Shown here in pieces: positions 7,358 through 37,675 of a stretch of 38,360 nucleotides of DNA. The notes beneath the pieces are model-generated. The model searched no databases and was not told the DNA's origin. It saw only the letters and a list, made by a program, of their open reading frames with translations. The translations under genes were made by a program, and so were the position numbers. The stretch spans positions 1 through 38,360 of IMG/VR virus record IMGVR_UViG_3300048575_000463. One strand, 5' to 3'. Numbering within the stretch: the first letter of the stretch is position 1; the number at the start of each line of letters is the position of its first letter. This stretch comes from a virus (lineage: Duplodnaviria > Caudoviricetes).

Positions 7358-8568
7358 GCGCGTTTTTCCCGGAAAAGATCATCAAAGATCGGTTTGAATT
7401 TTGTTTTGGCTTCCAACCGGTCCATCGTGGAGATAAATGGGGAATAGTTGACGCTGAAATTGTTGATCACCATCGCACCGCCGCCAGCCATGGAAAATCC
7501 ATTCGGCAGGATCATCCCATCGCTGCCGGGAATAAACGGTTCCGGGCCATTCTCCCCGACCATATAAGCCCTTCCGGCTGAAACCTTTCCGCCAGAGGCG
7601 CGCCCGGGAAGTAAATTTCCCCAGGAAGCGGTTGACGCGATGGCATCTCCCAATGCACCAGGCGTGAATAACAATTGCTTGATGAATTCCCAGGTCCCGC
7701 CATTTGCCGCAAGTTGGTTGAACATGCTCCCCAGCATCCCGAAAAATTCAACGAGCTTATAGATCGCATATCCTACAGCCACAATGGCCGCAGCCACAGC
7801 CAGAGCTGGCCCCACAACAGCCCAGGTGCCTACGGCAACACCTTGAAGAGCCGTCCCTGCGGCTGTCAGGCCTCCCGCGGATCCGCCGATCTTACTGAAA
7901 ATGATGGCCAGATCCGCCATACTTGCCAGCGCTCCTCCATTGACCAGTGATCCAATCCCGAGTGTGACATCCTGTATCGGCTTTGGCATTTGTTGAAATA
8001 TCCCTAAAAGAGTGCCAGCCGCTTCATATTTCATTCCCGTCATAGAATCGTTGAATTCATCCAGTGCCTGTTTCGATGCCTGGATCTTTTTGGCTTTTTC
8101 GTCATCAATGATCAGGCTTTCAGACGTAGCCGCAGCCATTTCCCGGATCTTTGAACCTCCCAATTCCAGATATTTGGCCATATCCGGTCCAGCACGCTGA
8201 CCAAACTGATCGATCAAGAATTGTGCCTGCGCTGCTGGATCTTTTATCGCCATGAATTGGTCTGACAGCCGCGCCATGGCTTCAACGGTTGGCTGCACGC
8301 CATTGTCTGCCATGGTTTTCATGGCCAGCCGGAGCGAATTGTAGGAGACGAACGCATCGTCCGTGCTCTGGATGAGCCTGCTGGCTTCTTCGTTGCTGAT
8401 CCGGGTGAAAGAGGACAGATCCTTCACCTGGTCACCGTATTGAATATATTCATCGGTGACCTTGCTGACAGCCCGCGCGGCGTCCGCCAAATTCTTGGTC
8501 AGATCCTTGAATTTAGAAGAGGCTTTGTCATCCGCGTTGATTACAATCTTGACTTCTGAATCTGACAT
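7354..8568 (-). CDS. Tape measure protein (short, 404 aa)
   Basis: VKIVINADDKAS N-terminus, helical and hydrophobic middle, C-terminal RASGG.V...YMVGENGPE motif. Confidence 0.85.
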   Translation of the reverse strand: MSDSEVKIVINADDKASSKFKDLTKNLADAARAVSKVTDEYIQYGDQVKDLSSFTRISNEEASRLIQSTDDAFVSYNSLRLAMKTMADNGVQPTVEAMARLSDQFMAIKDPAAQAQFLIDQFGQRAGPDMAKYLELGGSKIREMAAATSESLIIDDEKAKKIQASKQALDEFNDSMTGMKYEAAGTLLGIFQQMPKPIQDVTLGIGSLVNGGALASMADLAIIFSKIGGSAGGLTAAGTALQGVAVGTWAVVGPALAVAAAIVAVGYAIYKLVEFFGMLGSMFNQLAANGGTWEFIKQLLFTPGALGDAIASTASWGNLLPGRASGGKVSAGRAYMVGENGPEPFIPGSDGMILPNGFSMAGGGAMVINNFSVNYSPFISTMDRLEAKTKFKPIFDDLFREKRA

Positions 8569-8774
8569 ACCATCCTCATTTCAGCGCCGCGTTCTTCCAA
8601 AGGCCGGGTATAGCATTCCCGTTCGATCCATTTCTTTTTGGCCAGAGTTCCGGTCTCACCAGTGATCTCCCAGGGCGCCTTTCCCCAGGCACGCGCTGCT
8701 TGCAAAATCTTTACCCAGGCCGGGGGTTGGGGAGGAAGCTCATCGCCCGTATACGTCGCCCAGGCAATGATCAT
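8541..8774 (-). CDS. Tail assembly chaperone, downstream (GT-like) segment
   Basis: Lies between the chaperone and the TMP, in the -1 frame relative to the upstream ORF; AARAWGKAPWEI motif. Confidence 0.55.
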   Translation of the reverse strand: MIIAWATYTGDELPPQPPAWVKILQAARAWGKAPWEITGETGTLAKKKWIERECYTRPLEERGAEMRMVCQIQKSRL

Positions 8775-9043
8775 CCTCCGCTCGGAGGGTCCATCGTTTT
8801 CAGTTTGTTGACCACCTCCGCGAAAGCAAACAGCGTGTCATTCATCTGTTTGGTCTTCAGCTTGCCCAGGGCTTTGTAACCATCCTCCGGTGACATGCCC
8901 TTTACAAAAACCGAAAGGATCGACCGCGCTTCTGCCGGACTGAGTTTCGGAGCCTTATCTACAATTTCCCATTGCTCCCACGTCAACTCATCCAACCGGT
9001 CCGGCGTGATATCAAGTTCAATCGTGTTTCCTTCTTCAGCCAT
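8771..9043 (-). CDS. Tail assembly chaperone (G-like)
   Basis: 90-aa ORF after the tail tube gene, with AGGAG RBS. Confidence 0.6.
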   Translation of the reverse strand: MAEEGNTIELDITPDRLDELTWEQWEIVDKAPKLSPAEARSILSVFVKGMSPEDGYKALGKLKTKQMNDTLFAFAEVVNKLKTMDPPSGG

Positions 9044-9117
9044 CGCTTACACTCCTTGAGGCAATTAATCAAAATAGAGACATTCCTCCCCCATCGGGGG
9101 AGGTAAGGAGGGGGATT

Positions 9118-10338
9118 CTACGGTAGCGTACTCAACTCGTTGACCACCGTCAGCGTGGCATATAGACCCGCTGTCGAGTTGTATGCGCCCAGGAAAGATC
9201 CTTTGACCACATCATTGCCGTCCAGATCGTCCAGGGCATCAAACTTTTCCCATTTCCCGGCCATATCCACCAGCAATGTTTTCTTTGAGTAATTCGTGCC
9301 GGCCGTCGCCAGGCTGCTACCTTCAAATTTCAGACGGATCTTCCGGCTGAGCTTGTTCCGCCAGTTGATCTTTTCAGCCACGGAAGAACCGTCGTGCTCA
9401 AATGTGATGTCCAGCTTGGCAGACGGTTTATCCATTTTGACCTTGGAGAAATAGAGAAACCCGTCGCCGGTGAAATCTGCCTGCCATCCGGTGGTGACCT
9501 TCAAATTCATCTCCAGGAAAGTCAGGCTTTTCTGCGTGCCGCCAAGAGTGCCGCCCACATCATCAATGTAAAGTTTGCCCAACTGGAAGAGGATCTCTTC
9601 CACCGTTGGCAGGGTCGCGATCACGGTAAACGTCTGCTCAAGCGTTACAGAGGCGCCCAGGCTTTCATTGACCATCGTTTCGTTGACCACAATTTCACCG
9701 GCTACCCCGCCGGTGGCCACTGTGTATGTGCCATCATTGCTCGCGGATCCGGTTACCATGATGGCCATGCCGGTGGTAAATCCCGCCAGGCCATTGGCTG
9801 TATCGGTGATCTTTTTGGTGGCGGCCACAAACGCGATCGTGCTTGCTTTGTACTGGTTGATCGATGCCTGCCTCGGGCGCCAGGTATGTTTCATCTTCAT
9901 CACCTCACCCGCTTTGCCGGTCAGCGTGAGTTCTTCCAAAAACGCATATTCTGCGCGTTCCATCTGCTGGTTGTCACCACATTCCAGCGTGCGCGTTTTG
10001 ATCGCTGGCAGCGTTGTGGTGGGCAATGGATAGGCATAGATCTTTCCGCTTCCGGCTCCATCGGCCACGCCGGTTGTCACGTTTTTGATGCCGGCCGCCA
10101 GCGCGTAAGGCAATTGTTCAAACGTCGCTTCACCGGCCAGTTCGATCTGTGCTTCAACCTTTGGGATGAAAGCCCGGTCAACAGGCGAAATGTAACCAAC
10201 ATCTTCATCCGCGTGTTTGACCTGGCGCTGGTCTTCCAGCGTGCCCGTCATGCGCATGATCGCCGTGGCCAATACCGCTGTCCCGGATGTCGCTTCAGGA
10301 CCCATTTGTACTTTCCGTAAAGCCTTTATGCCGCCCAT
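9118..10338 (-). CDS. Major tail tube protein with an inserted beta-rich domain
   Basis: 406 aa; LRKVQMGPEATSGTAV N-terminus, TLTVVNELSTLP C-terminus; position upstream of chaperones and TMP; strong RBS. Confidence 0.75.
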   Translation of the reverse strand: MGGIKALRKVQMGPEATSGTAVLATAIMRMTGTLEDQRQVKHADEDVGYISPVDRAFIPKVEAQIELAGEATFEQLPYALAAGIKNVTTGVADGAGSGKIYAYPLPTTTLPAIKTRTLECGDNQQMERAEYAFLEELTLTGKAGEVMKMKHTWRPRQASINQYKASTIAFVAATKKITDTANGLAGFTTGMAIMVTGSASNDGTYTVATGGVAGEIVVNETMVNESLGASVTLEQTFTVIATLPTVEEILFQLGKLYIDDVGGTLGGTQKSLTFLEMNLKVTTGWQADFTGDGFLYFSKVKMDKPSAKLDITFEHDGSSVAEKINWRNKLSRKIRLKFEGSSLATAGTNYSKKTLLVDMAGKWEKFDALDDLDGNDVVKGSFLGAYNSTAGLYATLTVVNELSTLP

Positions 10339-11951: not shown

Positions 11952-13607
11952 TTACGCGTGCATGGTCAGGTACTGGAAGGCTTCGCTCTGGGCGACGAAA
12001 CCGCCCATGCGGAAGCGGGCCAGCAGGCCGATCAGGCCATTCGCGGCGCGGTAGGTGTAAGGATCCTGGAAGACTGTGAGGCCTTCACGCACGCCGAATT
12101 CGTAGAAATCGGGGTTGCAAACCATGATCGCCTTATTGGTGGCTGTGGCGGCCGGCATCGCGTCGGTGCAGTACACCGGAACGCCCATGATGGTACCGGG
12201 GTTGATCGGGTTCCCCTCTCCCGAGGGCATGGGCGAGAACTGGAAGGGATTGCCAGTTTTGGCGCGCAGGATTCCGAGAGTAGCCCGGCGCATGACCAGC
12301 GCCAGGTTATCGGCATATGCTCCACCGATGGCGTACAGCAACTGGACAAGTTCTGCCGTGGTGATGTCTGTCGCGCTGGCTGTAGTGATTCCCGATGAAG
12401 AGGCGCCATTCAGCATGGCCTGGGGCATGGAGCTGCCGGTTCCACCGGAGACCAGGTAAAAATTCTCCGCCAGTGCCATGGACCGACCCCAGACCTTTTG
12501 GACGTAGTTGTCAAAATCGGGGGAATCTTCCTGCAGTTCTTCCGCGAATTTGATCAGTTTCGTGAGCTTGTACATGATCCCCAGGCCGGAGGTCATGGTA
12601 GGCTCGTTTTCGTCATAGGCGCCATTTTCCGCGGTGACCACGAATTTGGTGGCAGCGGTATCTTCCAGCGGCACCAGCAACTTGTCGCTGGTGCAGGGCA
12701 CGGGCACTACGCCCATTTTGCGGATGATCGAGATCTCGGTGCGTTTCGCGATGATCCCGGGGATGAACTGATCAGGCACCGAATAACCGCCCTGGGCATC
12801 CACCTGGCCGAGCATTACGGCCTTGTATGGCACCCAGTCGCCGGTGACTATACCATGACGGAAGCTCTTCACCTGCTCATTGGAATTGCCGAGAGTGGTT
12901 TTGGTATTGATGTTCGGCACGGCAATCCCGCCGGCGTTATTCGGGCCCAAGTCCTTGGCGACTTTTTCAATGGCCCGTTCAATGGCAGCGTTGACTTTGG
13001 TATCAATCGCTTTGGTGACGGCCGCTTCGATCTTGGCTTCCAGATCAACTTCTGGGGCCTGAGTTGTGCTTACAGGATCCATATTTCCTCCATTGGTTTT
13101 TCCCTGCGGTTCCGCGGGAAGTAATGTTTTGACCGGCGTCACCATGTTGCGGTATTCAGCCGGGGTTGGTGTCAGGCTGGCTTCAGCAATCGGCCAGGTC
13201 TTGATATGCGTGGACTTCCCAACGCTTTCACGGGTCACCAGGTGACCGGCCGCGCCGGAAGATAATCCAAGCTTTCCCTCTTCGGCCAGTTGGGCGATCA
13301 TGTGCTCGTAATCATCCCTTTGCTCGAGCTGCATCTCGAACCACATGCCGGCATCGTCATATTTCACAATGCCGTAACCGATCCGCTTGGCTTTCATCTG
13401 GCCGTCCATTCCGTGCTGGTAATAGACGGGAAGGCTTCCCCCATCTTTCACACCGAGATCGGTTTCCTTGGAGAAAAATTCCCCTTCAAGGTCCGTGTCT
13501 TTCGGTGTTCCATACCGCACGAGATATCCACCATATTTCCCATCACCCAGGCTTTTTAGGCTCCGGTCTCCAGGAAAAGCGAGGACTTCCGTGATTGCTC
13601 CTTCCAT
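11952..13607 (-). CDS. Prohead protease - HK97-fold major capsid fusion protein
   Basis: N-terminal protease motifs DLEGEFF, YYQHG, GLSSGA, EASLTPTPAE; capsid motifs GGYSVP, GTIMGVPVY, ARFRMGG. AGGAGG RBS before ATG 13607; internal RBS/ATG at 13082. Confidence 0.9.
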   Translation of the reverse strand: MEGAITEVLAFPGDRSLKSLGDGKYGGYLVRYGTPKDTDLEGEFFSKETDLGVKDGGSLPVYYQHGMDGQMKAKRIGYGIVKYDDAGMWFEMQLEQRDDYEHMIAQLAEEGKLGLSSGAAGHLVTRESVGKSTHIKTWPIAEASLTPTPAEYRNMVTPVKTLLPAEPQGKTNGGNMDPVSTTQAPEVDLEAKIEAAVTKAIDTKVNAAIERAIEKVAKDLGPNNAGGIAVPNINTKTTLGNSNEQVKSFRHGIVTGDWVPYKAVMLGQVDAQGGYSVPDQFIPGIIAKRTEISIIRKMGVVPVPCTSDKLLVPLEDTAATKFVVTAENGAYDENEPTMTSGLGIMYKLTKLIKFAEELQEDSPDFDNYVQKVWGRSMALAENFYLVSGGTGSSMPQAMLNGASSSGITTASATDITTAELVQLLYAIGGAYADNLALVMRRATLGILRAKTGNPFQFSPMPSGEGNPINPGTIMGVPVYCTDAMPAATATNKAIMVCNPDFYEFGVREGLTVFQDPYTYRAANGLIGLLARFRMGGFVAQSEAFQYLTMHA

Positions 13608-13627
13608 AAGCACCTCCTAAAGCGCTT

Positions 13628-14228: not shown

Positions 14229-14468
14229 TTACGAATAACAATCACCTTTTGATTTATCAAACAATTCATTTAATCTTTGGATGGTTCCTATCTTCTCACC
14301 TGGCTGATGCATTCTGGTTGACTCGCATCCTTCGCAATATAACAAATAACAAAGTTGACCTTTAACCATTCGATAGTGTTTATGGATATGCCCGCACCCC
14401 ATACATATTGCATACCATCGTCGAAAATTCAAAATATTATCTCTCAACCAAAACATCAACTTTCTCAT
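14229..14468 (-). CDS. Small AT-rich zinc-finger-like hypothetical protein (moron-like)
   Basis: 79 aa with CMGC and CEGC; translationally coupled to MuF. Confidence 0.5.
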   Translation of the reverse strand: MRKLMFWLRDNILNFRRWYAICMGCGHIHKHYRMVKGQLCYLLYCEGCESTRMHQPGEKIGTIQRLNELFDKSKGDCYS

Positions 14469-15241
14469 TAATCAGCGACCTCCCAGCTCACCCCACATCG
14501 GCAATTCGTATGCGCCGGCGGGAAATCATCACCTTCGATCTCTTCTCCATCCTTTGATCCACACACCTCGCAGGTAACATCATCATTGGCCGTCCGCCAG
14601 ATGGCCTTCATTTTGATGCCATAACCTTCGATCTGGTCCACAATTCCGCGGTCACCTTCCACCGCGGCCCGTGTCGTTTCAGTGACGGCGATCATTTCCG
14701 CGCGCCGTTCTCCAAACTCAACCTCCAAAGCACGGCCGATATCATCAATTGTCAGGTGACCATCCGCATAATAACGGCGGATCTCTTCACTGACAGCCTG
14801 GCGCTGAGAATCCGTAATATTCCTCACCAGGTCAAAACTATAATGGCGTGCCCAGTCCACCGCTCCCTGGTTGACTTGCATCCAATCCACACCACCGATC
14901 GGGGCGATCTCCAGGTAGCTTTCCGCCCAGTCCAGTGCGATATCCGTCAAAGTATCCTCAAAGATCCGCCGTAATTCCGCGCTGACCGTATCCCAGAAAT
15001 CAACGGGAATATTGTCAGCTGAAGGCGGATCTCCCAGATGTTCGAGGAGACGCCGCAGCTGGTCCGCGAATTGACCCTTCACCTTCCGGGTCAACCGCTT
15101 TTCCCATTCTTCACGGTCCGGGAAATGCCGATCCTTCTTTACCGCTGGTTCACTGCAGAGGTAAGGCACCGCCATCGGTTCATAAAAAGCGGTTACCTTA
15201 CCCAACACAGTGATCAGGTTTTGCCTGGCAATAATGTCCAT
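14468..15241 (-). CDS. MuF-family minor head (head morphogenesis) protein
   Basis: RAEMIAVTETTRA, IWRTANDDVTCEVC and PPAHTNCRC motifs; directly after the portal. Confidence 0.9.
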   Translation of the reverse strand: MDIIARQNLITVLGKVTAFYEPMAVPYLCSEPAVKKDRHFPDREEWEKRLTRKVKGQFADQLRRLLEHLGDPPSADNIPVDFWDTVSAELRRIFEDTLTDIALDWAESYLEIAPIGGVDWMQVNQGAVDWARHYSFDLVRNITDSQRQAVSEEIRRYYADGHLTIDDIGRALEVEFGERRAEMIAVTETTRAAVEGDRGIVDQIEGYGIKMKAIWRTANDDVTCEVCGSKDGEEIEGDDFPPAHTNCRCGVSWEVAD

Positions 15242-16842
15242 CAGAGTGTCATTTCCAATAAATCATTGGCCCGTTTCAACTCGGCCAACATATCTTTTTC
15301 TATCGGAATGTTTTCTTGTACGGAGGCTGAGCTGCCTGCACTGGATGTTTTCTCCAGTGTCGAAGCCCATCCCCGCGCTTTCCCAAAGACCGAATAAACA
15401 TCCTCCGCACTCTTGCATGTCTTCAAAGCCGCGCGGATCTTCTTGGCCGCGTCATCCGGAATAGACGGGTGATCAAAATCCAGATCCTTCAGATCATGCC
15501 CGGTCTTCACCGCCTTCAATGCCGCCTGCTTCCAGTGAAATAGCGCCGAACGAACAGCGGAGCCATTGTTAGCCTCTCCCTCCCGGGGAGAGGTAGGAGT
15601 GGGGTCCGCCCCATCCTGAGAATTCTGGCCTGCAGTTTGTAAAGCCTCTCCCCCCCGGGGAGAGGCTGGTGTGGGGCCACCCTGCCCAGCCTCCGCCGCC
15701 GCGATCCTCTCCTGGACCTGCATGCGGCGTTCCACCTCTTTGATGATCGCCTCACGCTGGTCACTGGTCAGGTCATACCCCAGCACTTCCAATGCCGTCA
15801 ACAGCGGCATCCCGGCTGTAGTCAACTTGACCACGGAATCAGCCCGGTTGGCTTCATCCTCCTGGAATTCATCCAGCTCTTCAAAGGCATATTCCGCGTA
15901 GATCCCAAAGGCTTTTTTCAAAAACTTATTCAGCTTGCTGCAGATCTTTACCCCATGTGGACGCACACAGGTCTTCCAGAATTGTGAATTATGCTCTGAT
16001 GCCGTCGCGTAATTAGCCGCGTCATCCAGCATGGTCACCGGAATGCCAAAGGCATCGGCCACAGCTTTTCTGGCTTTCGCGTCCAGCTGGGGCATCATCA
16101 ATTCCTTGAGCGGGCTTTGCAACGTATACGGTTGTGCCCCATCCTTACCCACCCGCAGCCCCATGATTGACCAGGCACGCCGGATCCCGGTGGAAAGGGA
16201 CTTCCACATTGTCTCAACCCGTTTGACTTCATCATCGCGTGTGTTTGTGGGCAGCGGAATAATCGTTATCGGCATGGCGCCATTCTCAAAATAATAACTG
16301 GCGAACTTGGTCAGGTAATTCTCGAGGTTCGCGTCATTCATGGCCACACTGGCAGCGCTTGGCCCTGGCAATAACGAGTTGCCGAATTTCAATTCACGGA
16401 TGTAGATCATTTCATCCGCTGACCAGGTATCCCGTTGCCCGCCGATGGCGTTCATTTGCCGGAAGACCAATTGCTTCGAATTACCATCAGGTTGGGCGCT
16501 TATGGTTGTCGGGTCCAGCCATTCAAGCCCCAGGACCCGGTTGCCCAGGCCTTTTAGCGTGATGGTATACGATGCACCCAATAAAAGGATGGAGCTGATC
16601 GTATTCCAGGTCCATTCGACTGTATCGATATCGAATGGCCATTCAACTTCTTTTTTTTCCTTACCTTTGCCCTGGTAAACCTTCAATTCAACAGATGACA
16701 GGCTGTCAGCGATCAGACGGGTGCAGCGGTATACCAGTGGGACGCGTTCATAGGCTTTGACTTCGCTGGTCAGTTTCCCGCTCCCGGATCCGAATGCTTC
16801 AATCCATCCTGGGATATTGATTGCTTTCAAATTTTGATTCAT
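15241..16842 (-). CDS. Portal protein (HK97-like)
   Basis: VPLVYRCTRLIADSLS, YFENGAMP and VADAFGIPVTML..ANYATA motifs; GAGGAG RBS before ATG 16842. Confidence 0.9.
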   Translation of the reverse strand: MNQNLKAINIPGWIEAFGSGSGKLTSEVKAYERVPLVYRCTRLIADSLSSVELKVYQGKGKEKKEVEWPFDIDTVEWTWNTISSILLLGASYTITLKGLGNRVLGLEWLDPTTISAQPDGNSKQLVFRQMNAIGGQRDTWSADEMIYIRELKFGNSLLPGPSAASVAMNDANLENYLTKFASYYFENGAMPITIIPLPTNTRDDEVKRVETMWKSLSTGIRRAWSIMGLRVGKDGAQPYTLQSPLKELMMPQLDAKARKAVADAFGIPVTMLDDAANYATASEHNSQFWKTCVRPHGVKICSKLNKFLKKAFGIYAEYAFEELDEFQEDEANRADSVVKLTTAGMPLLTALEVLGYDLTSDQREAIIKEVERRMQVQERIAAAEAGQGGPTPASPRGGEALQTAGQNSQDGADPTPTSPREGEANNGSAVRSALFHWKQAALKAVKTGHDLKDLDFDHPSIPDDAAKKIRAALKTCKSAEDVYSVFGKARGWASTLEKTSSAGSSASVQENIPIEKDMLAELKRANDLLEMTL

Positions 16843-16849
16843 AGTCTCC

Positions 16850-18409
16850 TCACGCCACGAACGCCAGTAACGGGCCGCCATATTCCGCGATCATCTCAAA
16901 CCCGCCGGACGTCGTATCCACCTGGTCATCATGCTGTCCGGTCGGGAACACCAGCATTTCCCGCAGGTAATCCTCGATCCAATCACCATCATCGATCAGA
17001 TAGATCAAACCCTGTGTGCCGCGCGTCCGTACGGGTAATGCTCGGGTGACCTTGTCCTTTTCCGGCTTTACTTCCACAATGCTCACCCGAGCCAGGCGTT
17101 TATCCTTCATAAACTCCTGGAACACCAGGCTCTGAAACCCGGTCGTTTCAATACCCCATATCGTGCCGCGCTCCGCTGGTGAAAGCATCAGGTCCACTAA
17201 CATCGGCAGAAATTCATTTATGTCATGGATCCGCAGCATCCCACGGCAGAACACCCGCCCCTTATCATCATCCATGGCCTCGGCCAGCGACGTATTCCAA
17301 TCCGACCGTTCACTCTGCCCCATCGCCAGGTCAACATATCGCACCCAGCTCAACTTCTTGGGGATGATCGGGTCATCGCCCTTTATCACCTTGAACATCG
17401 ACCGGTCAAAGAACCCGCCCGTGATCGGCCGCGGCATCTGTTGGTACTGGCATCCGAACTCATAATCACCCACGTTGGACCGGGTTTTTTCGAGGGATAT
17501 TTCGTCATATTTTTCTGGCCATAATGCATGGCCAGCCTCGCGCCCCAGTGGATCCTTGTACGGCACGAAAATTCCCGCCCTCAGATTCGCGTGGTATTCG
17601 GCTTCATTTTGTGGAAAGTCTTTTTCTTCGAGGGCCAGCGCCGGCAGATGTAATACTTCGTAGGTATCCGCGATAGGGTCGCTTTCCGACAGCTTAAGCA
17701 GTGTCCCTGCAAGATCTTCCGGGTGCCACCGTGTATGGACGATAACCACAGCTCCGAAGTCTTCCAACCGGGTATAAGCCGTGCTTTGCCACCAGGTGGA
17801 GACCACTTTGCGGCGGCTTTCGCTCTCCGCTTCTTCCCGGTTCTTCAAAGGATCATCGACGATCATCAGATCGGCGCCAAAGCCCACAAGCGCGCCGCCC
17901 ACACCGGCCGAGTCAACCCCGCCCCTGTGCGGTTTTGCCAAATCCCAGTTGTTTTTGCTCCGGCTGTCATCGCTCAGCGCTACCGGTTCCTTCACCGACG
18001 ACATTTCCCCAAATACCGCCCTGAACCGCTTACTGTCCACATAATCACGAATTGACCGGCTGGCACGTTGCGCCAGATCCGCGCCATATGATGTGATGAT
18101 CACCCGCTTGTCCGGGTTGCGCCCCAGGAACCACGCGGGGAATATCTTCGAGACTGTCTCCGTCTTACCTGTGCGCGGCGGCATAGAGATCATCAGCCGC
18201 CCGATGCCCTGCTTCCCTTTGGTGGCCACATACAATTCAACTTGTTCCAGCTTTTGCGCCACCAGCTCAAGGTGTGCCGCCCTCTGGTATCCGTTGGTCG
18301 TGTTTGTGGTGGGCCAAATATATGTGGCAAAGTCCATCAACCGGAGCCGCGCCAGCTTTCGTTCAATAGTATTGAGTGCAGCCTGTTCAGGCCGGATCAT
18401 TTGGTCCAT
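16850..18409 (-). CDS. terL: Terminase large subunit
   Basis: Walker A MPPRTGKT, Walker B LMIVDDP, HTRWHPEDL, nuclease motifs YVDLA and FPTGQHDDQVD. Confidence 0.95.
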   Translation of the reverse strand: MDQMIRPEQAALNTIERKLARLRLMDFATYIWPTTNTTNGYQRAAHLELVAQKLEQVELYVATKGKQGIGRLMISMPPRTGKTETVSKIFPAWFLGRNPDKRVIITSYGADLAQRASRSIRDYVDSKRFRAVFGEMSSVKEPVALSDDSRSKNNWDLAKPHRGGVDSAGVGGALVGFGADLMIVDDPLKNREEAESESRRKVVSTWWQSTAYTRLEDFGAVVIVHTRWHPEDLAGTLLKLSESDPIADTYEVLHLPALALEEKDFPQNEAEYHANLRAGIFVPYKDPLGREAGHALWPEKYDEISLEKTRSNVGDYEFGCQYQQMPRPITGGFFDRSMFKVIKGDDPIIPKKLSWVRYVDLAMGQSERSDWNTSLAEAMDDDKGRVFCRGMLRIHDINEFLPMLVDLMLSPAERGTIWGIETTGFQSLVFQEFMKDKRLARVSIVEVKPEKDKVTRALPVRTRGTQGLIYLIDDGDWIEDYLREMLVFPTGQHDDQVDTTSGGFEMIAEYGGPLLAFVA

Positions 18410-31494: not shown

Positions 31495-32472
31495 TCAATC
31501 CCATCCTTTCGGCAGATCCGCGTAAGCGGCGGCTTCCACAGCGGCTCTCAGCTCTTCCTCGCCAGGTGACTGGTAACGCATGGTCTGTTTGACGTTGGTG
31601 TGACGCATCAGCTGCTGGGCCACCGGCAGTGGGACGTTGGCGCGGTCCAGCTTTTTGCCAAAGCAATGGCGCAGCATGTGCGGCGTCAGTCCGTCGATCT
31701 GGCAATCACGGCCGGCCTCGACCACAATGTTCTGCAGCTGGCGTTCTTTGATAGGAAATAAGATGGCGTCTGCCGGCAGATCCGCACCGTCAAGAAAAGC
31801 GCTGAGGTAATGGCGCAATTCGGAACACAGCGGGACTTTGCCGTATTTCTGGCCCTTGCCGTAAACAAAAACGTGCCCGCTGCGTTCGTGGATCTCGATG
31901 TTTGAACGGCGCAGCTTGCAGACTTCGAATTCACGCAGGCCGGCGTAGGCCATGAGGGCCAGCATGGCCACATTGCGGCGTGCCATGGATTTCTGCCGCG
32001 GTGTGTGGGCGGCGTCTTCAGCATGTTCCAGCCAGCGTTCGAGCCTGTGAAATTTCGACTGGTCGATCCAGCGCGGCGCGTCTTCCTTCTGCTGTTTGGC
32101 CCGGTCGACGCCGCGCAGCAGATCTGTCGAATTGATGCCCTGGGCGCGAAGGTAGCGGCTGTAAACGGCCACGAATGCGCGCCGGCGGTTCCAACTGGCG
32201 GGCGCCCATCCGGCAACTTCCAGCGCGTGATGGCGCCAGGCGCGGATGTCACTGGAGGAGAGCAAGCGCGCGTCAAATTTCTCCGGGCGGTTGTGCTCTT
32301 CGTACCAGGCAGTCAACACGGCCAGATCTGATTGATAGGATTTCCCGGTTGTGCCCGGGACGCCCTCTGTGTTGAGCCAGGCGCCGAAGGTGACCGGGGA
32401 GGCAATCACCTTCGGGCTGGCATGAGAGGGACGGATATGTTTGTGGTAAGTGGGGATGGTGGCGATGGTCAT
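31495..32472 (-). CDS. Tyrosine recombinase (XerC/D-like resolvase)
   Basis: SAM-like N-domain; catalytic R (AGLREFE), K (GKGQK), HxxR (HMLRH), H (MRH) and Y (TMRY). Confidence 0.9.
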   Translation of the reverse strand: MTIATIPTYHKHIRPSHASPKVIASPVTFGAWLNTEGVPGTTGKSYQSDLAVLTAWYEEHNRPEKFDARLLSSSDIRAWRHHALEVAGWAPASWNRRRAFVAVYSRYLRAQGINSTDLLRGVDRAKQQKEDAPRWIDQSKFHRLERWLEHAEDAAHTPRQKSMARRNVAMLALMAYAGLREFEVCKLRRSNIEIHERSGHVFVYGKGQKYGKVPLCSELRHYLSAFLDGADLPADAILFPIKERQLQNIVVEAGRDCQIDGLTPHMLRHCFGKKLDRANVPLPVAQQLMRHTNVKQTMRYQSPGEEELRAAVEAAAYADLPKGWD

Positions 32473-34169: not shown

Positions 34170-34364
34170 CTATTCTGTTTTTGCGGGCGCGGGAATGACC
34201 ACCGCTTCGCCCAGGAGTACCGGATATGCAATCTCTACAGCTTTATCAAGCACCCATCCCTGGGAGCGATCTTCACGCTTGCAGATCTCCGTGACACGAT
34301 CTTCCGTCTCGACAAGAATTTTTCGGGTGACAATTACCTTTTCGCCTCTACTGATTTTGGCCAT
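34170..34364 (-). CDS. Cro-position ribbon-helix-helix (Arc/CopG-like) regulator
   Basis: Beta strand VIVTRKI, helix ending KREDRS, second helix QGWVLDKAVE; divergent from the repressor; AGGAG RBS. Confidence 0.65.
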   Translation of the reverse strand: MAKISRGEKVIVTRKILVETEDRVTEICKREDRSQGWVLDKAVEIAYPVLLGEAVVIPAPAKTE

Positions 34365-34375
34365 GTGTGCTCCTG

Positions 34376-34463
34376 AATATACATTACTAATGTAAATGTA
34401 TATTACAAGAGTACTAGTAATTTGTCAATAGGTCTATTTATGAATATTTACAGTTGTTATAAT
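34376..34463. promoter_or_regulatory. Divergent promoters/operators of the genetic switch
   Basis: Minus strand TTGACA(34423-28)-17-TAATAT(34400-05); plus strand TGn-TATAAT(34458-63); palindromes TACATTA-C-TAATGTA and AATATACATT/AATGTATATT. Confidence 0.7.
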
Positions 34464-34469
34464 GAACGC

Positions 34470-34892
34470 ATGTCTTTCGACCGCCAATTTTTTATAAGAT
34501 TTATTTCGGATGAATTCTATAAGTTCCGTGGCAATACAGACAAGTCATGGTCTGATTTTGCTGATTTTCTTGATGTAAGCCAGCAGACTATGGCTGCATG
34601 GAAGAACGGGTATTTGAAAAGGGTCCCGTCCCAGGAAAATATCAACAAATTGGTTCTTCATTTTGGCCCTATTGTTTATGAAATTTTAGGCATTGAAAGG
34701 CCACCTGAAGATCGAATAGATGACCTTTTGGCTGTTCTGCCAGATGAATTACATTCATCCATCAAGGAAGCTCGAGCAGAATATATTTCAGAGTTTGTTA
34801 AAAGAGGAATTTCAAAAGATTCGCCTGAAGCCAGGCAGATTGTGATTGAAGCATTTGAGAAGCGCGGCATAAAAGTCAATGTAACTGAGTGA
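34470..34892 (+). CDS. XRE-family HTH repressor (CI-like, no S24 peptidase domain), leaderless
   Basis: SWSDFADFLDVSQQTMAAWKNG...PSQENINKL; ATG 6 nt after TATAAT with no RBS. Confidence 0.8.
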   Translation: MSFDRQFFIRFISDEFYKFRGNTDKSWSDFADFLDVSQQTMAAWKNGYLKRVPSQENINKLVLHFGPIVYEILGIERPPEDRIDDLLAVLPDELHSSIKEARAEYISEFVKRGISKDSPEARQIVIEAFEKRGIKVNVTE

Positions 34893-35083
34893 TCCATAAA
34901 ATCCCCTTCATGTGATGAAATTGATGTTTACTATGTAAAGGGTTTTATCGACCAAAATTTAAGTGATGATAATTATTCAGAGCCATTCAAATTTCCTTTT
35001 CGTGTCATTTAGTAAATACGTTCTATATAGAACGATAATAGCACGACGAGGACGATAAAACAAGTGCCCTAAGGGAGGAAATT

Positions 35084-35500
35084 TTGATAACTTCATGGGA
35101 TGATTACCCAAAACTAAATTCAATTCAAATGAAGACTTTCAAATTAGCACTTCATGAATATGAAACAACAAGCAAAACTGTCGGATATGTTGCAAAAATG
35201 TTGATGGAATATTTTTCCAAAGAGGATGCCAAAATCATCGCGGCAACTGAAATAACTCGTTATTATGCGAATAAGGACATGAAAGAAGCGATGGGTATTT
35301 ATCATGAATTAAGTAAGAACCCATCTTTTCATATGAATAAAATTTGGCAAACTGCAAACGACAATTTCAGATGCCCTGTATGTAAAGGCCTTCATGGCGT
35401 TAGCGTCCCACTCATCGAGAACTTTCCAGGTGGAATTTTCCAACCTCCGGCCTGCCCTGGTTGTCGGTGTGATTTGACATTCCATCATTATTTTAAATAA
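35084..35500 (+). CDS. Stand-alone truncated MuF-domain protein in the lysogeny module
   Basis: [32 protein letters not shown] and PPACPGCRC motifs; GGGAGG RBS 5 nt before the TTG start. Confidence 0.8.
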
Positions 35501-35513
35501 CAGGGAGGAATAT

Positions 35514-36053
35514 ATGAAAAAATGTCCATATTGTGCCGAAGAAATTCAAGACGAAGCGATCGTCTGTAAACACTGCGGACGGGATTTTCGCATGATACAA
35601 CAGCCACCACGACAGCCCTCCACTCCGCCAAAATCCGGAAATAGCAATCGAAAATTATTGTGGATATTAATCGGTTGCCTCAGCGTTTGTGTTTGTTTAC
35701 TTTTTTCTTTTATGTCTTCAATGTCATCAAAAAATCCAAACAACTTTACTGGAACCCAGGCATCCAACCCGGGCCTCTTTACCAAAGAAGTTATTTATGA
35801 AGTCACCGGATCCGCCACCGGAATATCTGTGACACTTGAAAATGCTGATGCCGGCACAGAACAGGGAGAATTCGCCCTGCCATTCAAAAAGATCTTCCGC
35901 ATGAAAGTAGGTTCATTTATCTACATTTCTGCCCAGAACAAAGGCGAGACGGGTGACGTCACCTGCACGATCTATCTGGACGGTCAGAAATATAAAACCG
36001 CAACATCCTCCGGAGCATACACAATTGCCAGTTGCAATGGCCTGGTGGAATGA
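35514..36053 (+). CDS. Zinc-ribbon / TM / MmpS-like membrane protein (candidate superinfection exclusion)
   Basis: [21 protein letters not shown]; TM helix; VIYEVTG...ISAQ...VTCTIYLDG...ASC. Confidence 0.7.
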
Positions 36054-37591
36054 CCCAAACTAAATCCCCATTCCCTCGGTCCTCTTCGGTCGCCGCTTAT
36101 TTACGTGATTCTGGCGGCGACGATCAGGACCTGTCCGTGGGACAGCAGGAACGGTCCATCAGGGATTGGTGCAACAAAAATGATATAGAACTCACCCAGA
36201 TCTTCCGTGATGAAGCCCGCCCGGGCAGCTCCACCATCGGCCGCAATGGCTTTGACGAAATGATCGCCTATTTCCGGGCGGCCAAGAAGGTCAGGGAAGC
36301 CGGTCTGGTCATCTGGTCATTCGCGCGCTTCTCGAGGTCGCAGGATGACAGCCAGTATTTCAAGGCAGATCTCCGCCGGCGCGGCTATATCATCCACTCA
36401 ATGACCGATTCCCTTCCGGAAGGCACGATGGGAAAATTCTTTGAGGCGGCCGTCGAATGGAAGAACGCGGATTTTCTCGAGACCCTTTCGCGCGAGACCA
36501 AGCGCGGCCAGCAGGACCTGGTCAAAGAACACAAAGCCCTGGGCGGCACCCCACCGGCCGGGTTTCGACGCGTGCAGGTCACCCTGGGCAAACGCCGGGA
36601 TGGATCAGCGCATATTGTCCACCGGTGGGATATCGACCCCGAGACGATCGACCGGGTGCGGCTCGCCTGGGAAATGAAAGCGGGCGGCGCCAGTTACAAA
36701 CAGATCCACGCGGCCACCCACATCTACAACTCGGTCAACAGCTATGTCACTTTCTTCCGCAACCGCCTTTACCTGGGGGAAATGAAATTCGGCGAGACTA
36801 TTATCCCCAACTATGTTGAGCCGGTGATTGACCAGGATACCTGGGACGCCGTACATGCCCGGATGCAAAATGGCCGCGGTCACATTCAGCCCGAGATGGA
36901 TCCATTGGACAATCCACGCCGGGCATACAGCCGGTTCCTGCTCAGCGGATTGCTCTGCTGCCAGGAATGCGGCGCGCCGATGAATGGTATCAGCATCCCG
37001 TCAAAGACCGGGCCATCCCACGAATATTATGAATGTTCGCGGGCCAAACGCAGCGCGGGCTGCCAGGCCAGGCCGGTGCCCAAGATGACCATCGAAAAGG
37101 CTGTGCTGGACGAATTCAGGGAATACCTGGTCACGCCTGAAGTGATGGCCGCGGTCCGTCAGAGGGCCAAAGAGCGCAGTGAGGAAGTTACCAACGAAAC
37201 ATCCGAAAAAATAGCCCAGGCAAACCAGCGCCTGGGAAGTGTGCATCAACGCATCACGAACATTGTCAACGCCATCGAGACCACTCCAGACAGCGAATTT
37301 TTAGCCAAACGGCTGCTGGATCTCGAGCAGGAAGAACGGGATATCCGCCGCCAGGTCAAAACTCTGGAAGAGGACAAACGCGCCACCCGTCACGCTGTGG
37401 ATATCGAAATGCTCTCAAAAGTGCGTGGATTGGTTGAAAATATCGAAAATATTCACCCGGATGACCTGAAATCGATCTTGATCGGGTCAATTTCGAAGGT
37501 TTTGGGAAGCAGAAAAGACAGGACCGTTTATGGCGAAGTCCTGTTCTTGCCTGCTCCCGAGCTGGTTTTTGCGGATAATGAATTTTTATAA
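36050..37591 (+). CDS. Large serine recombinase (integrase)
   Basis: AYLRDS catalytic Ser, [25 protein letters not shown] zinc ribbon, YYEC, coiled coil; ends within the att repeat. Confidence 0.95.
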
Positions 37592-37612
37592 CTTCGGGGA
37601 GGTGCCCCCATC
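37577..37612 (+). repeat. Right att junction (overlaps the integrase stop and the tRNA 3' end)
   Basis: Direct repeat of 1506-1541. Confidence 0.9.
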
Positions 37613-37675
37613 GGGATTCGAACCCGAGTTTTGGCCTTGAGAGGGCCACGTCCTGGGCCACTAGACAATGGGGGC
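37601..37675 (-). tRNA. tRNA-Glu (anticodon CTC)
   Basis: GCCCCCA/TGGGGGC acceptor stem, TGGCC-CTCTCAA-GGCCA anticodon arm, TCGGG-TTCGAAT-CCCGA T arm; ends ACC followed by T. Confidence 0.97.

Follow-up and report, generated by a model that had tools for sequence, protein, structure and literature searches.

About a third of tailed phages carry MuF genes, and 85% of these genes lie near the portal or terminase, the remainder not being discussed in the text of that survey, from which the words 'repressor' and 'integrase' are also absent (Jamet 2017; PMC5576092). The functional studies that we found in the literature concern only two MuF proteins, gp7 of SPP1 and gp44 of 80alpha, both recruited by the C-terminal part of the portal (PMC6316719, PMC12889711). 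Of SPP1 virions without gp7, only ~25% are infectious (PMC6316719). As a dimer, the 80alpha protein protects blunt DNA ends and has been proposed to bridge them; it works in trans from the cytoplasm of the infected cell, and removing its residues 1-32 abolishes function (PMC7290940).

Here we describe a MuF gene in another setting, found in a provirus record of 38,360 bases, the whole of which we refer to as the window. The gene, at 35084-35500 on the plus strand, encodes a free-standing C-terminal domain and lies in the lysogeny module of a phage that has a full-length head MuF as well. Judged from sequence, this short MuF is a real and conserved gene that varies a known family of proteins, and it would likely act against competing phages.

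A MuF gene between repressor and integrase

The gene, its surroundings and the counterparts needed for comparison are as follows.

34170-34364, minus strand: Cro-like small ORF, first of the early genes (assigned from its position)
34422-34892, plus strand: predicted CI-type HTH repressor, start uncertain, upstream of the MuF gene (HTH_3 E 5e-4, below the cut-off)
35071-35079, plus strand: Shine-Dalgarno-like AAGGGAGGA (from the sequence)
35084-35500, plus strand: free-standing MuF C-terminal domain, 138 aa (Pfam over cut-off; AlphaFold2; BFVD)
35514-36053, plus strand: zinc ribbon, one hydrophobic segment and an MmpS-like domain, 179 aa (Zn_ribbon_3 over cut-off)
36050-37591, plus strand: large serine integrase (Resolvase, Recombinase and Zn_ribbon_recom over cut-off)
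37577-37612, plus strand: right-hand copy of an att-like repeat, reaching into the 3' end of tRNA-Glu (37601-37675, minus strand)
1506-1541: imperfect twin of this 36-bp att-like direct repeat (from sequence comparison)
14468-15241, minus strand: full-length MuF of this phage's head module, 257 aa, next after the portal gene and of a different MuF lineage

The product of 35084-35500 matches PF04233 (Phage_Mu_F) with 34 bits (E 5e-8), the curated cut-off being 29.6; searching the genome gave 33.5 bits. Its TTG start has GGAGG at 35074-35078, five bases 5' of the start codon, and relatives P0005, L112 and L124 share the start point, marked by a 'YP.L' motif; because these relatives start at the same motif, we prefer the TTG over the ATG at 35129 of the public 123-aa call. 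An earlier reading of this DNA, made from the sequence only, had described an ORF with a good ribosome-binding site between repressor and integrase, on the strand opposite all virion genes and devoid of a toxin extension, and all of this holds: the frame is intact, the portal, terminase, capsid and head MuF genes are all on the minus strand, and the protein terminates 9 residues past its last Cys, with no C-terminal extension of at least 100 aa. At about 18-20 kb from the portal gene, the short gene is beside neither portal nor terminase. The AT-richness that had also been remarked upon is real (36.9% GC against 52.5% for the whole window), but the repressor gene is equally AT-rich (38.0% GC), so that low GC marks the module and not the MuF gene specifically.

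The repressor gene gave weak matches to phrog_4 and phrog_8 and is divergent from the 64-aa Cro-like ORF, which had no Pfam or PHROG match. Its frame stays open for 39 codons past the TGA stop (34893-35012, plus strand), which may reflect either a lost C-terminal part or chance. Downstream, a gap of 13 bp separates the MuF gene from 35514-36053, whose product is PF05423-like by predicted structure (TM 0.83). These two genes are likely on the same transcript, and from the arrangement we infer co-transcription with repressor and integrase. A sigma-70 scan of 34300-36200 yielded three sites against 5.6 expected, with none on the plus strand; plus-strand hairpins comprise a weak one within the repressor gene and another at 36077.

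The 36-bp repeats at 1506-1541 and 37577-37612 are likely the attL and attR that bound the prophage. The serine integrase apparently targets a tRNA gene (tRNA-Glu). A tyrosine recombinase is encoded besides it among the early genes (31495-32472, minus strand), and a related prophage, L083, likewise carries both recombinase types (L169, 16583-17668). Two named genome matches (Anaerolineales and Pelolinea) and a 39%-identical integrase in an Anaerolineales genome make an Anaerolineae bacterium the likely host.

A separate lineage of short MuF genes

The short protein had been taken for a second, truncated copy of the phage's own MuF. The similarity itself is sound, with 33 of 103 positions identical to the head MuF (32%, E 1e-13) and all three of the motif pairs quoted in support present in the alignment. 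The descent is not: the two proteins stand apart in the tree and a shared clade is rejected (AU test, p=0.007), which refutes a recent duplication of the head gene.

No close relatives of 35084-35500 were listed; it is a singleton at 90%, and viral contigs gave no pattern match. A phmmer search of 1.84 billion representatives nevertheless returned 779 matches at E<=0.001, the best eight non-self matches all being 125-184 aa long (top P0005, 42%). With a 7-row profile we obtained 54 matches, the top 27 of which are 108-187 aa and all score above the first full-length MuF; most profile matches come from short contigs without context, and 20 matches were called putative short genes on length and N-terminus alone. 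By these comparisons 35084-35500 belongs with other free-standing MuF C-terminal domains, 108-187 aa in length, in a family that is apparently one of Anaerolineae. GenBank phages and plasmids gave distant matches only, mostly to annotated head, portal or protease genes, and viral scans with P0009 and P0027 as queries gave no loci.

For IQ-TREE, 68 rows were subsampled from 228 over 156 columns and the bootstrap was unsettled; 17 probable fragments were excluded from the trees, L156, L158 and L163 were discarded as contig-end or split genes, and L159 was left unclassified. In this tree 35084-35500 falls inside a 22-row clade made up entirely of short forms (89/88, not starred) and, within a starred four-row clade, groups with P0005, L019 and L124 (100/86), while the head MuF belongs to a separate starred clade (100/94). 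In FastTree, 35084-35500 and P0005 fell outside the short clade and sat on a long branch; the branch of 35084-35500 is long, at 1.2 changes per site. Short forms have at least three independent origins in the IQ-TREE topology, and their lengths grade from 187 to 80 aa.

Substitution rates could be compared in two pairs of short genes. L112 and L124, which are 87% identical, gave dN 0.056 and dS 0.233 (dN/dS 0.24), and L161 and L162 gave dN 0.23 and dS 1.5 (dN/dS 0.15); for 35084-35500 itself dS is saturated. Purifying selection, as read from these codon comparisons, is acting in the sister lineage L112/L124, and this together with the intact frame agrees with the view that 35084-35500 is a kept, intact accessory gene.

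A complete short gene was present in 1 of 80 viral, 4 of 70 metagenome and 2 of 2 genome loci, the others being full-length or open at a contig end. Genome searches over overlapping sets of 401, 401, 67, 401 and 19 genomes gave 13, 22, 1, 21 and 3 positives respectively, mostly with full-length MuF, and part of their loci were fetched, with short frames as the main ground for selection. At least 3 kb of flank is available for eight distinct short relatives. The repressor-integrase layout occurs in one of these eight, L083, where a divergent small gene, an HTH repressor, a 62-aa membrane ORF, the short MuF, a lipoprotein, a Panacea pair and a serine integrase follow one another; the context thus recurs in a related prophage. 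Another contig of the same genome bears a head module with its own MuF. The Panacea (SocA-like) antitoxin of the L083 lysogeny module (8412-9496, minus strand) has an unannotated 138-aa partner. L019/L112 represents an island that also encodes tyrosine recombinases and a methylase-endonuclease, the gene for the latter adjoining L112. Six of the eight (L124, L084, L160, L161, L162 and L164) lie among housekeeping genes, the last four being more distant and outside the main clade; an Mrr gene is found near L160.

Portal, terminase and capsid queries had no match in any of 17 short-gene loci, which are partly redundant and include four of <2.2 kb, and were positive in all three controls. PF04860 likewise had no match in five of five host genomes, all incomplete, whose chromosomes carry a short gene. 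Since head genes are absent around the short genes, the short MuF appears to be kept without a head module.

What the short domain keeps and what it has lost

The AlphaFold2 model of the short protein (pLDDT 94.9) consists of a three-helix bundle (residues 13-76) followed by a beta-hairpin that bears a Cys cluster (C97, C100, C124, C127 and C129). Among predicted models, BFVD returned 41 matches at E<=0.001 with TM up to 0.76, the named ones being head-morphogenesis, minor capsid or portal(-fusion) models, and an Atlas match reached TM 0.82; no solved MuF structure exists to compare with, Foldseek at E<=0.001 and sequence comparison against solved structures both giving no match. We are confident, from the models, that the predicted fold is MuF-like. 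The best VIA Z scores (5.6 for the short model, 8.0 for the hairpin of the full model) are both at background level, and the resemblance of the N-terminal half of the short model to three-helix HTH/homeodomain folds is weak (Z 5.6, rmsd 2.1, 47 aligned residues).

In its model the full head MuF has a helix at 3-20, a helical hairpin at 43-112 and a low-confidence linker at 113-119, followed by the part kept in 35084-35500. The loss of the N-terminal region, claimed earlier, is confirmed in that the short protein begins after this linker and lacks the full-length N-terminal helical region of about 120-135 aa. Because the truncation point coincides with the linker, the cut lies at a predicted domain boundary, and a naturally kept free-standing C-terminal domain marks that boundary for MuF proteins.

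The core residues T55, E56, K86, W88, T90, D93 and the cysteines are conserved in both sets of rows compared, 22 short and 45 full ones. All 45 full rows have an Arg that 10 of the 22 short rows retain; 35084-35500 has Asp in its place. A conserved His is replaced by Cys at residue 124, as had been noticed. Of 30 short rows, 10 show the same replacement (one is ambiguous), and of 189 readable full rows none does (9 of 198 were unreadable); as a disabling mark of the family, however, it fails, being present in only 2 of the top 27 members. Cys is able to ligate metal in place of His, and the change is a recurrent, tolerated one, probably at a metal ligand. Net charge is +2 in 35084-35500, with medians of -5 in 196 full rows and -2 to -3 in 25 short rows; a neutral to acidic core does not favour DNA binding.

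An amphipathic N-terminal segment of the Gly-Leu-Phe-Gly type has been gained in P0085, P0157, P0169, P0173, P0175, P0177 and P0090, suggesting membrane association of these proteins. The MuF Cys knuckle occurs alone (84-85 aa) or fused to other domains in L164 (6549-7253), L161 (6044-6301), L162 (7127-7381) and L177 (4220-4795), and in the first three of these the gene sits among housekeeping genes.

In the portals of these phages a flexible linker leads to a conserved C-terminal domain of ~90 aa that PF04860 does not cover (window 15244-15609, minus strand; L028, L009, L018, L060, L157 and others). Where the portal has a terminal helix, the partner MuF has 18-74 residues before the shared core (23 loci and the window), and where it ends at 'W..Y(P)', the partner has 1-13 (six loci). 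Although it belongs to the second lineage, the head MuF of the window carries the extra N-terminal helix and is paired with a portal that bears the terminal helix. This co-occurrence suggests that the MuF N-terminal helix, absent from 35084-35500, is a latch for the portal, although with two lineages involved linkage of adjacent DNA could be an alternative explanation, and portal tail length, a crude measure, showed no significant rank correlation with MuF length (rho 0.28, p 0.19, 23 pairs).

The head module at 14468-16881 (minus strand) is mosaic, with portal and capsid closest to L028 among the fetched loci (44% and 41%) and the head MuF closest to L060 (43%) and only 32% identical to that of L028. 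The head MuF may have been swapped, and such a swap could give immunity to the short gene. The capsid gene (11952-13613, minus strand; 553 aa) encodes an HK97-type capsid domain at residues 275-550, and the N-terminal part of the protein resembles a putative fused prohead protease.

Possible functions and comparison with known systems

The reading that we favour, tentatively and with somewhat less than even confidence, is that the free C-terminal domain competes with the full-length MuF of incoming related phages. The short MuF is likely made in the lysogen along with the repressor. The lost N-terminal helix and helical hairpin would carry portal docking and dimerization, and the free domain would occupy the binding target of the MuF C-terminal domain, whether genome end or protein partner, and once bound would neither bridge nor dock. 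MuF that had been ejected or newly made would fail, and the rival genome or its progeny would lose infectivity, an effect that would be partial because MuF is helpful but not essential. By the gp44 data, a free C-terminal domain that is present before infection would be in a position to compete with an incoming MuF. Against competition it counts that one relative in eight shows the repressor-integrase layout, that the housekeeping contexts of six suit passengers no less than defence, that without the invariant Arg the shared binding site may itself be gone, and that the neutral-to-acidic core does not favour DNA binding; the unsettled placement of 35084-35500 in the trees and its saturated dS weigh on the same side. 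PADLOC 2.0 gave no credible match to a known defence system, its one alignment, to 53 of the 592 positions of PD-Lambda-5_A at 17.4 bits, being judged chance. The broader proposition, that prophages and hosts have repeatedly kept the cut-off end of a virion ejection protein as a dominant-negative anti-MuF weapon, which spread from lysogeny modules into chromosomes, is possible, and we advance it more cautiously still.

A newly acquired role that has nothing to do with phage heads, such as that of a small regulator that binds metal or of an accessory protein associated with the membrane, would accommodate the HTH/homeodomain resemblance, new amphipathic N-termini in nine short proteins, the confinement of the His to Cys replacement to short forms, the chromosomal copies and the fusion of Cys knuckles to other domains (L164). 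We nevertheless consider it unlikely: Z scores of 4-5.6 are at background level, the MuF-specific core residues are conserved, and no conserved neighbour points to a regulon.

Lower in our estimation is a helper of the phage's own establishment, produced early with repressor and integrase, which would protect or help circularise its own genome. Full-length gp44 in the cytoplasm complements a deletion in trans, but N-terminally truncated gp44 fails to do so, and although the short gene is co-oriented with repressor and integrase in two prophages, the phage already has its own head MuF, and chromosomal copies survive where no portal gene was detected.

Another role, ranked lower again, is that of a portal decoy, as the sequence-only reading had proposed, in which the short MuF would attach to a rival's portal or procapsid and exclude the rival's MuF, leaving poorly infectious virions. 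The conserved core surface and the recruitment of gp7 and gp44 by the C-terminal part of the portal (PMC6316719, PMC12889711) speak for such binding. The putative latch, however, is the N-terminal helix missing from the short gene, as the split between 18-74 and 1-13 residues indicates; because the lost N-terminal helices are likelier to be the portal-docking and dimer part, a decoy is less likely than competition for the target of the C-terminal domain, and portal binding by the short MuF is, on this reasoning, doubtful.

We think it improbable that the short genes are neutral or decaying passengers, that is, MuF fragments often captured and lingering. Rarity in genomes, the long branch, the multiple origins and the graded lengths are what such a process would leave behind, but the frame and ribosome-binding site are intact, dozens of diverged members are intact too, dN/dS is low in both pairs, and all Cys and core residues are kept. 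Very improbable is the sensor half of a two-gene system that triggers abortive infection with the adjacent membrane protein since, despite the short gap to 35514-36053 and the membrane or lipoprotein genes flanking L083, L084 and L150, the neighbouring products differ in type (zinc-ribbon/MmpS-like in the window, Thr/Pro-rich lipoproteins at those three loci) and L112 and L124, the closest relatives whose context is known, lack a co-oriented partner of this sort, which leaves the once suggested fixed partnership with the membrane gene unsupported.

If the short MuF interferes with rivals, a virion protein would here have been turned into a phage defence that strikes at the ejection-protein step. 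The short MuF is in any case a ready tool for finding which half of the protein docks on the portal and which acts after ejection. It also carries a warning for annotation: calls of 'head morphogenesis protein' of 110-190 aa in Anaerolineae are often not head genes.

Free-standing MuF genes are not described in the open-access literature that we found, although supplementary tables S4-S5 of the MuF survey, which cover all MuF proteins, may contain some (PMC5576092). The 'short MuF' named in that paper denotes the lack of a C-terminal extension and not N-terminal loss, and its 614 muf genes in 611 phages compare with a second muf gene in one phage here. With MuF1, SPP1 gp7 and 80alpha gp44 (PF04233) the protein shares the same predicted fold, the TE.TR, W.T..D and Cys motifs and the lack of a toxin extension, but 35084-35500 is without the N-terminal helix and hairpin, far from the portal and on the other strand; DNA binding by gp44, moreover, maps to a basic tail that is absent from the MuFs compared here. 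MuF polymorphic toxins, as described in PMC5576092 and PMC5512222, also set a MuF domain in a temperate phage, whereas 35084-35500 has no C-terminal extension, lies outside the packaging module and is followed by a gene with a 179-aa product rather than a small (<150 aa) immunity-type gene. Tab (PMC10884400) and Tai (PMC11364771) offer a possible analogy as prophage accessory proteins that lower the infectious progeny of rivals, but they target tails and, in the accounts cited, are not described as derived from virion proteins. In prophage FimU mimics (bioRxiv 10.1101/2024.03.29.587342) a look-alike protein expressed from the prophage likewise defends, but by imitating a host pilus protein at the cell surface and not a cytoplasmic phage head protein.
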